Below are positions 22,721 to 23,410 of a stretch of 64,000 bases of DNA, one piece after another. A program made the position numbers and the translations under genes. The notes under the pieces are model-generated. The model was not told the origin of the DNA. It worked only from the letters and a program-made list of their open reading frames with translations, and did no database searches. The DNA is taken from positions 1-64,000 of IMG/VR virus record IMGVR_UViG_3300044782_000021, one strand, 5' to 3'. The stretch's first letter is position 1; every line of letters begins with the position of its first letter. Source of the DNA: a virus.

Positions 22721-23410
22721 CGGCCGGGGCCAACTCACCACCGAAATCCCAGCGAAACCCGCCCCGGCCGGCCATGGCGCAGCCGACACCCAATCTTACC
22801 GCGCCGGCCGGGGCCAACAATGTCCCGCATCCCAAGTGAGAAGCGCCCCGGCCGGTCCATGCAGCACTCGATATCCAAGCCGGTACCGGCCGGCCGGGGC
22901 CTATGGCGCGGCGATATCCAAACGAGGCGCGCCCCGGCCGGCCACATGATTGTCGATACCCAACACGTGGGCGCCGGCCGGGGCCTATGGCGGTCCGAAA
23001 CCCAATCAAGCGGCGCCCCGGCCGGCCAAACCCGCACCGCAACCCAATCAGCCCGCGCCGGCCGGGGCGCCATGGTGCCCCTGAAACCCTGTCGACGAGT
23101 GCGCCCCGGCCGGCGGCGGGGCCATTCCAGGAGCCATGAACCATTGGCCTTCCGCCCCGCTGCCACAACTCCATAGACCCGACCCCGGCGCCATATACCG
23201 CGCGCATACCCAAAGCGCAGTCGCGCCGGGGTTGTACAGCAGGGCGGCGGGGCTGAGGCTCACTCGACACCCAAGCCAGAAACGCCCCGCCGCCTACCCA
23301 TACCAGCCGGAGCCAACGAAGAAGCGAAACCCAGTGCGGCATCCGCTCCGGACAGCCGGGCGGCGGGGCCAAAGGGTGGACCATAACCCACTAGCCCAGC
23401 GCCCCGCCGC
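22721..23410 (+). repeat. array of ~16 units (~40-45 bp period) with alternating G/C-only arms and a strand-fixed CCAA box
   Basis: Arms GCCCCGGCCGG / CCGGCCGGGGC start at 22721, 22761, 22804, 22846, 22890, 22931, 22974, 23015, 23058, 23103. Degenerate arm pairs lie at 23182/23223, 23244/23284, 23359/23400. Spacers carry (C/T)ATGG at the 5' end and GA(A/T)A(C/T)CCAA 8-10 nt before the next arm. Confidence 0.85.

Follow-up and report, generated by a model that had tools for sequence, protein, structure and literature searches.

The stretch of viral DNA considered here, 64,000 nucleotides (nt) of IMG/VR record IMGVR_UViG_3300044782_000021 (positions 1 to 64,000, referred to throughout as the window), very probably carries a stem-loop TIGR (Tandem Interspaced Guide RNA) array, with the gene adjoining it downstream encoding the effector of that array, a TasA protein that has no nuclease. 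The window includes genes for a large terminase, a portal, a tape measure and a primase/helicase, and thus belongs to the genome of a tailed phage; the GC content of this phage is 65%. TIGR-Tas systems were defined by Faure et al. (Science 2025, PMC12045711) and have been surveyed by Xu et al. (2026, bioRxiv 10.64898/2026.09.09.750476). A second array type, found with TasA-like proteins, consists of tandem stem-loops with two spacers of 8-12 nt, box C (CCA), box D (UG) and variable palindromes that replace the edge repeats (PMC12045711). The original prediction for this DNA, which drew attention to a repeat at 22721-23410, had held that no actinophage element of such architecture was known to be described; this is not supported, the stem-loop TIGR array with TasA having been described in 2025 (PMC12045711). 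What is known is therefore the class; notable here are the extreme packing of units through shared arms, the occurrence of units within a gene and scattered through the phage, a partner gene that is conserved, and close relatives among cultured phages.

Anatomy of the array

The array is tandem and occupies 22669-23412 on the plus strand, where we count 15 units of about 42 bp each instead of the approximately 16 first proposed. The repeat itself is real and far beyond chance: Tandem Repeats Finder (TRF) recovers a tandem repeat with a period of 84 bp, 4.2 copies and 68% matches at 22760-23114, and the arms of the hairpins alternate strictly. The forward (F) arm, GCCCCGGCCGG, is present in five exact copies, at 22761, 22845, 22931, 23015 and 23103, and its complement, the reverse (R) arm CCGGCCGGGGC, in four (22804, 22890, 22974 and 23058), with a further copy with one mismatch at 22720. 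Along the chain the distance from an R arm to the next F arm is always 41 nt, and that from F to R is 43-45 nt. Toward the right end the arms give way to the degenerate pairs that had been predicted, ACCCCGGCGC/GCGCCGGGGT and GGCGGCGGGGC/GCCCCGCCGCC; the array holds at least four arm families, each complementary within its pairs, and the stems of the locus are 7-18 bp long.

Each unit follows one plan: stem, CCA (box C), spacer A of 9 nt, CG (box D), 4-5 nt, a second CCA, spacer B of 9 nt, CG, and stem. The loop of about 30 nt had been recognized correctly; its supposed start, (C/T)ATGG, is instead the edge box C (CCA) at the junction of stem and loop. The CCAA box that had been described as never changing strand does occur in every inter-arm segment and exclusively on the plus strand, and it corresponds to the box C of the loop. 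The length of spacer A is 9 nt in all units except one with 10, and that of spacer B is 9 nt apart from one of 8, one of 10 and an over-long one in the first unit. Between the two spacers lies a loop repeat of 9-10 nt (CG, 4 or sometimes 5 nt, and CCA), whose commonest turns are ACAC, ACGC and ATAC. Only these boxes of 2-3 nt are shared by all units of the array. The earlier description had missed this division of the spacer into two 9-nt guides by a box D/box C loop repeat, the effector role of the gene beginning at 23435, and the units in and past that gene; the locus is wider than 22721-23410, reaching into tasA, past tasA, and upstream of the gene that precedes the array (gene A).

That the region has no credible coding content, as first proposed, is borne out by its composition. 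The GC content at the three codon positions of the array is 0.69/0.69/0.70 and alike in all frames, as against about 0.68/0.47/0.80 in the flanking genes, and because this asymmetry is absent in every frame the region is taken to be non-coding. A repeat protein on the minus strand, encoded by an open reading frame (ORF) of 255 aa at 22617-23384 with recurring GPGRR and IGF motifs, is scarcely credible as an explanation. The ORF is open across the whole array and 42 bp is a multiple of 3, but the codon-position bias expected of a gene is missing, some units stand 86 and 88 bp apart and so put the frame out of step with the repeat, the predicted product has no match in Pfam or PHROGs, and relatives differ by insertions and deletions and by unrelated spacers. 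The ORF was accordingly set aside as spurious, on codon-position GC and on the frame-breaking unit lengths.

TasA and its place among RNA-guided proteins

The gene immediately downstream, tasA (gene B; 23435..24439, plus strand), encodes a protein of 334 aa with a coiled coil and a C-terminal domain resembling those of Nop proteins and IS110's RNA-binding domain (RBD), and with no nuclease domain. A profile built from 28 tasA orthologs (A1) matched a single entry of the PDB, 9mty, which is TasR with tigRNA and target DNA (E=5.8e-14), and the homology starts at TasR residue 142, past the RuvC domain. The AlphaFold2 (AF2) model of TasA (pLDDT 83, pTM 0.79) is weak only at residues 164-209, which form a disordered insertion, and in the C-terminal tail; its first coiled-coil helix begins at residue 14. 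Foldseek, given this model, placed solved chains of TasR or TasH in each of the first ten ranks (prob 1.00) and Nop56/58, Nop5 and Prp31 after them. Identity to the solved Tas proteins is only 14-23%. A Pfam scan of TasA gave no nuclease domain and indeed no Pfam domain, PF01548 and PF02371 being absent at E<=0.01. Since the Nop fold matches that of Tas proteins, the homology begins after RuvC and a nuclease domain is undetectable, gene B is, as judged from its sequence and model, of the TasA subtype rather than a TasR or TasH.

Residues ~231-258 of TasA contain a cluster of Cys and His that is near-invariant in the orthologs (C231, C239, C256 and C258, plus H, in a CxxxC...CxC arrangement; CAESCVKQLLKTC...HVDDCKCSP). 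This stretch, which is missing from the alignment with TasR, may represent an insertion that binds zinc within the C-terminal Nop domain.

The product of tasA also matches phrog_4285 in PHROGs (E=5e-62), a family labelled "transposase". The label is explained by the C-terminal RNA-binding domain (Pfam Transposase_20) that is shared with IS110 recombinases, in which a guide, the bridge RNA, likewise lies upstream of the gene. TasA, however, has neither the DEDD/RuvC-like domain nor the catalytic Tnp serine context, its array has many units as opposed to a single bridge RNA with two loops, and no element ends are found at the locus. An IS110-family transposase was therefore ruled out, the two IS110 domains being absent as given above and the shared part being for RNA binding only. 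The weaker structural matches recall the box C/D s(no)RNPs, in which a dimer of Nop-domain proteins (Nop5 or Nop56/58) measures two guides anchored by box C/D-like motifs; the system in the window differs in having no K-turn boxes (RUGAUGA/CUGA), no L7Ae and no fibrillarin, and the target of TIGR systems is DNA rather than RNA.

The closest likeness is to the stem-loop TIGR systems with TasA of a Peromyscus leucopus gut metagenome (PlTasA), Bifidobacterium longum (BlTasA) and Minisyncoccota (MbTasA), as presented in PMC12045711, in 10.64898/2026.09.09.750476 and by Guan et al. (bioRxiv 10.64898/2026.08.11.744272). They have in common with the window a nuclease-less Nop-domain effector, tandem hairpins with variable palindromic stems, two spacers of ~9 nt, each between a box C (CCA) and a box D (CG/TG), a loop repeat of 9 nt, units upstream of, downstream of and inside the tas gene (there in the disordered insertion), and carriage by phages. 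The window differs from them in its unbroken run of nine units with shared arms, in the lack of CUU at the bases of its stems, in having a conserved upstream partner, gene A, that is not the ParB-like TasParB, and in its range among actinobacterial phages, which includes cultured Cluster A mycobacteriophages. The survey does note arrays with "overlapping stems", which are scored there as having zero linker (10.64898/2026.09.09.750476).

Dual-repeat TIGR systems with TasR or TasH (TaTasR, 9mty; SpTasH) share the Nop fold, the box C/D anchors and tandem spacers of 9 nt, with both strands being read at an uninterrupted target of 18 bp, and in them too an edge element is common to adjacent units, as the arms are in the window. 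Their edge repeats, though, are direct, 8-12 nt long and pair over only 2 bp, whereas the window has alternating arms of 11-15 nt that form full stems; and their effectors carry RuvC or HNH nucleases and use fixed 36-nt guides, while TasA of the window has no nuclease. With CRISPR there is a more general resemblance, in that short guides are clustered on a mobile element for RNA-guided recognition of nucleic acid, but the window has neither direct repeats of 25-36 nt nor adaptation genes, and its guides are split and would read both DNA strands. A CRISPR array was ruled out, the repeats being arms of 11-13 nt that alternate in orientation and no cas-like genes being present among the neighbours examined.

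Units, strand and shared arms

The TIGRFinder rules of the survey (10.64898/2026.09.09.750476) include box C as CCA, CGA, CTA or CAA, box D as TG or CG, a 9-nt spacer, intervals of 14 nt, a gap of at most 15 nt and a stem of at least 5 bp. This strict pattern is present in 8 of the 15 array units, as well as in two units inside tasA and two downstream of it. In a relaxed scan the remaining seven have one box off, or two in the case of those at 23056 and 23112, with the variants CCT, CTG, and CA for CG/TG.

As a measure independent of the window, a covariance model (R1) was built from 62 training units, all of them from other loci. It matches units of the window at E values from 2e-8 upward, and on the plus strand only. 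The first unit (22669..22730, plus strand) follows directly on the stop of gene A and forms an inverted repeat with a CCA box C, a second box C of CCT and the over-long spacer B mentioned above (R1 24.8 bits, E=0.007). It is followed by the shared-arm chain, nine units at 22719..23115 in which the 3' arm of one unit is the 5' arm of the next and neighbours overlap by 12-16 nt. Since they overlap, the chain units were scored by R1 one by one, with 25-52 bits on the plus strand versus ~15 bits on the minus: 32.6 bits at 22719-22772, 51.6 at 22761-22814 (a canonical unit with spacers TGGCGCAGC / ATCTTACCG), 38.3 at 22803-22856, 39.1 at 22845-22900, 38.2 at 22888-22943 (with a CCT box), 50.1 at 22931-22984, 39.6 at 22973-23026 (again with CCT), 44.8 at 23012-23071 and 25.4 at 23056-23115, where two boxes deviate and TG stands at both box D positions, edge and loop agreeing. 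All are on the plus strand, and in this chain the edge and loop box C are CCA or CCT and box D is CG or TG, with a first spacer of 9 nt, a turn of 4-5 nt and a second spacer of 8-9 nt. The rest of the array, found by motif scans and R1 at 23112..23412 on the same strand, consists of five separate stem-loops, each with its own pair of arms and a loop of ~30 nt: 23112-23164 (degenerate, two boxes deviating; R1 E=0.13), 23180-23234 (E=3e-4), 23242-23295 (E=0.005), 23307-23351 (E=0.28) and 23358-23412 (E=0.014), the last ending 22 nt before the start of tasA. The mutually exclusive hairpins that the original prediction had extended over the whole array are thus found at 22719-23115, the units at the right end being separate.

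Across the 62 training units, 9 of the 10 stem pairs are altered on both sides and only the C-G pair of box C/D is invariant; 99.5% of the cells are paired, a count that is partly circular, as the units were chosen for having a stem. For an unbiased count we required five Watson-Crick pairs beside the boxes and nothing more, and across the loci 86 of the units so found lie on the same strand as the tas gene and 4 on the opposite one. Among isolated mismatches in the stems of this unbiased set, G.T (G.U in RNA) outnumbers A.C by 17 to 3 (p=0.003). The tolerance of G.T over A.C, together with the bias to the tas strand, argues that the units act as plus-strand RNA, and encoding on the tas strand with function at the RNA level is supported by these patterns, as the fixed strand of the CCAA box had first led one to propose. 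A fold of the plus-strand transcript, which had been put forward as a check, was less helpful: in the global minimum-free-energy (MFE) structure, computed over 771 nt, identical arms pair mostly at long range, and a good fold is obtained for either strand (z -6.3 and -4.6), so that it does not tell strands or registers apart. Rfam, at gathering thresholds, gave no match in the array and a single match in the scan, to a tRNA at 5812-5883; TIGR units have no Rfam family of their own.

The same observations bear on two readings in which the repeats would not be guides at all. Arrays of 43-bp repeats are known centromeres, and the regular period of ~42 bp, in an early/replication region with a primase/helicase at 11343-12800, could suggest an array bound by protein as double-stranded DNA (iterons, a centromere like sopC of F, or clustered operators); the duplex sites read, about four helical turns apart, would then be the arms or else the ACCCAA box. 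We consider this very improbable. The arms vary between units and between phages and yet remain complementary within pairs, which is the signature of base pairing rather than of a shared protein site; no duplex recognition sequence is common to the units, as an iteron or centromere would need; the stems tolerate G.T and not A.C; and units occur within a coding sequence (CDS) and singly elsewhere, with a neighbour that is an RNA-binding Nop-domain Tas protein. Palindromes of alternating orientation are also characteristic of the BIMEs of E. coli, and the G/C-rich stems and alternating palindromic arms would fit REP/BIME-like elements, or hairpins that stabilize or terminate a transcript and have no guide function. 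This is even less probable, given that box C, box D and the spacer lengths are conserved over at least 60 units from ~20 loci, that T-tracts are absent and that the units associate specifically with tas orthologs.

The shared-arm chain is the feature that most sets this array apart. In most relatives the hairpins are separate, with linkers of 6-11 nt, while the nine consecutive units of the chain have linkers of -12 to -16 nt; the close relatives (loci L004, L006, L007 and L012) have short shared-arm runs only. The period of 84 bp, together with the likeness of units 22888 and 22973, whose first 31 nt are 84% identical and which have the arm, the CCT box and the start of spacer A in common, suggests that the chain grew as a block of two units was duplicated in tandem and that its spacers diverged afterwards. 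The two registers in which the arms can pair differ: units in the F-to-R register (22761, 22845, 22931 and 23012) have canonical boxes and R1 scores of 39-52 bits, and those in the R-to-F register (22719, 22803, 22888, 22973 and 23056) have a CCT box in 3 of 5 and score 25-40 bits. As neighbours share arms, only alternate units of the chain can fold with an intact stem in any one transcript.

These properties could also be read as those of a TIGR array that is decaying or has been repurposed, a chain made by duplication of the 84-bp block in which the guides no longer function; TasA might then be sequestered by the chain as by a decoy or sponge of RNA, a form of autoregulation, or the chain might be a plain remnant of duplication. 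The TRF repeat, the likeness of the two units just named, the non-canonical, lower-scoring majority of the R-to-F register and the restriction that mutual exclusivity places on maturation all speak for such a reading. We nevertheless regard it as unlikely, for the nine chain units keep spacers of 9 nt (one of 8 nt), the 4-5-nt turn and both box positions, which drift would erode, and most spacers are unrelated to one another. The short shared-arm runs that the four close relatives keep also indicate that this layout persists through divergence.

Several points weigh against the assignment of the array to functional stem-loop TIGR guides. Because of the shared arms, not all units are able to mature from one transcript. 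Seven of the 15 array units have a non-canonical box, and in two of these the edge and loop boxes do not covary, for which reason part of the units may be inactive. A scan of the locus for sigma-70 promoters and intrinsic terminators gave nothing above shuffled sequence, and no T-tracts. The CUU processing motif is found at the stem base of none of the array units in the window, and within the clade CTT begins 1-2 nt ahead of the stem in 12 units out of 88 (~14%); the motif is a reported tendency and not a defining one, and its absence is compatible with membership among stem-loop TIGR systems. Finally, a search of the 64-kb window for self-targets, with both orders of the half-sites, gave as its best result one match with 2 mismatches, where 0.1-0.2 would be expected by chance, and matches with 3 mismatches at the level of chance. 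We estimate that in collections as large as the public ones an exact 18-mer would turn up again by chance, and the survey warns of many false-positive target matches with such short spacers (10.64898/2026.09.09.750476).

The anatomy of the units, their strand specificity, the covariation of their stems and the Tas fold of the neighbouring protein are observed; the activity that follows is what would be expected from published TasA systems. The plus strand would be transcribed, probably together with gene A and tasA, and each unit would fold into a G/C-rich stem closing a loop of ~30 nt, with box C, spacer A, box D, an A-rich turn of 4-5 nt, box C, spacer B and box D. The transcript of the array would then be cut into single stem-loop tigRNAs, on which a TasA dimer would sit at both pairs of box C and box D, that of the stem junction and that of the loop, leaving the two spacers to pair with opposite strands of a contiguous 18-bp site in DNA. 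Since TasA has no nuclease, the product would presumably be an RNA-guided repressor or roadblock, which binds and bends DNA and so blocks transcription (or replication) of genes of the host, of a rival element or of the phage itself. With TasA, stem-loop arrays have been found to be expressed and to undergo processing (PMC12045711), and expression, processing and co-purification of tigRNA with Tas have been reported only for PlTasA, BlTasA and CsTasR. Published TasA proteins repress transcription and bind their target in electrophoretic mobility shift assays (EMSA), and a cryo-EM structure of PlTasA with stem-loop tigRNA and DNA has been published.

A more adventurous proposal, which we offer as tentative and doubtful, is that the chain is a functional device choosing between two sets of guides and that gene A is a clade-specific TIGR accessory factor not yet described. 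The first hairpin (22669-22730) could decide the register co-transcriptionally, or occupancy of TasA or gene A could do so, and gene A, which accompanies the array as far as Cluster A mycobacteriophages, may have a role in the processing, loading or regulation of the guides. If true, the array would have a built-in switch between two target repertoires, that of the F-to-R and that of the R-to-F register. In any case the shared-arm layout is relevant to the processing of stem-loop tigRNAs and to the way in which their arrays expand.

Relatives, outlying units and neighbouring genes

Megablast matched the 5-kb region to none of 50,697 phage genomes, and relatives were therefore traced through the flanking protein. 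TasA homologs, ~33% identical, are found in records of 83 Mycobacterium, 5 Gordonia, 1 Arthrobacter and 1 Rhodococcus phages, 90 actinophage records in all, where they are annotated as transposase, DNA-binding protein or hypothetical. Metagenomic orthologs with 53-70% identity keep the order of gene A, non-coding gap and gene B, and their gaps contain hairpins with other arm sequences, pairwise complementary, and a loop of ~30 nt with a GAYACCCA-like box. Orthologs accompanied by units occur in genomes of Streptomyces, Kitasatospora, Nocardioides, Nesterenkonia, Micromonosporaceae, Propionibacteriaceae and others. Among cultured phages, R1 finds 5 units in the 334-bp gap upstream of the "transposase" of Mycobacterium phage Pari and at least 13 in Gordonia phage BENtherdunthat, many of them within sequence annotated as CDS 59; a prophage of M. 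abscessus has 3. The module is thus conserved across actinophages and is unannotated in the cultured phages Pari and BENtherdunthat.

We found no paper devoted to the TIGR arrays of actinophages. PMC12045711 does state, citing a review of mycobacteriophages, that tailed phages have TIGR loci, and actinobacterial loci are not listed in the text supplementary files of that paper (Faure et al.). A whole TasA clade is thus unannotated in actinobacterial phages, with the array in places annotated as CDS. Among its members are cultured, genetically tractable phages, both of M. smegmatis (Pari plus ~80 further genomes of Cluster A) and of Gordonia terrae; with these, deletion of the array, small-RNA sequencing and the mapping of targets are routine. 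Both key papers on these systems call for functional work in native hosts.

Two annotated genes of relatives deserve mention in this connection. The N-terminal ~440 bp of CDS 59 of BENtherdunthat (MG099939.1, locus L029, 2057-2500) and the annotated gene 26 of prophiFSAT01-1 (L031, 2253-2477) are full of R1-positive units, and these stretches are probably non-coding array, or array within a CDS, and not ordinary protein. Arthrobacter phage Talia1610 (L030, 194 kb) has the best-scoring TasA homolog of a cultured phage (35% identity), with an upstream gap of 237 bp (2243-2480); R1 gave no units near this homolog at E<=0.1 and the upstream ORF is not a homolog of gene A. Talia1610 may have divergent boxes or another type of array.

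Beyond the array itself, two units lie on the plus strand within the coding sequence of tasA, both found by the strict motif scan: one at 23926-23981 with a 13-bp stem (R1 E=1.8e-6) and one at 23990-24055 with an 18-bp stem (E=1.5e-7). Both coincide with the disordered insertion of TasA (residues 164-209). At the orthologous intragenic positions of L004, L006, L013, L014, L016-L018, L021 and L029, stems and boxes are kept and the spacers are unrelated, and in TasA of B. longum, according to the survey, intragenic units likewise lie in the disordered insertion (10.64898/2026.09.09.750476). Three further plus-strand units follow tasA, at 24441-24504 (17-bp stem, E=0.0023), 24580-24631 (11-bp stem, E=9.4e-5) and 24639-24702 (17-bp stem, box C TCA, E=0.0029). 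Upstream of gene A there is a solitary tigRNA-like unit on the same strand at 22020..22075 (CCA|TGCTGGAAG|CG..CGA|CGACGATC|CG, with a 13-bp stem; R1 E=0.054 at 22023-22072), as well as a weaker plus-strand candidate at 21952-22010 (E=0.88 at 21956-22006).

Five single tigRNA-like units, with stem, box C/D and two spacers of ~9 nt intact, are dispersed far from the tas locus, at 2797-2846 (R1 E=4e-5), 2872-2921 (E=0.005), 4497-4546 (E=8e-4, overlapping the start of an ORF at 4478-5767), 19294-19343 (E=7e-4) and 29068-29111 (E=0.024). By analogy with other stem-loop systems they may be dispersed guides. The site at 19129-19146, TACGAACTGGTCAAATGC, the one near-match that any guide has in the window, corresponds with 2 mismatches to spacer B plus the reverse complement of spacer A of the unit at 19294-19343, which lies 165 nt downstream; the match is not significant, and the proximity is curious.

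Gene A (22127..22663, plus strand), the conserved partner upstream of the array, encodes a helical protein of 178 aa with a weak match to phrog_4604. Syntenic homologs are present in L004, L007, L010 and L012 and as Pari gp22, BENtherdunthat gp58 and prophiFSAT01-1 gp25, and a word-indexed search for homologs gave 2 matches only. The gene A profile found nothing in PDB or Pfam, and a single-sequence AF2 model (pLDDT 73, pTM 0.43) had no significant fold match. Identity with the ParB-like TasParB, a partner in some tasA operons, was rejected from the sequence.

About 1 kb upstream of the locus, at 21163-21402, lies a gene for an excisionase-like protein of 79 aa of the MerR/HTH_17 type; in relative L007 a small MerR/HTH_17 gene resembling it lies downstream of tasA, at a few genes' distance. 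A tRNA-Arg (ACG) at 5812-5884, found by ARAGORN and Rfam, lies amid phage-like sequence with tigRNA-like units upstream of it and is either a phage-encoded tRNA or the remnant of an attachment site. Two other tandem repeats, both in probable coding sequences and both unrelated to the TIGR array, are a 12-nt repeat at 1091-1178 (CGTCCCGCTCCG, 4.8 copies), which gives a repeat of the PRPA type, and an 18/36-nt repeat at 5514-5587 in a linker rich in PTPT/ASPT.

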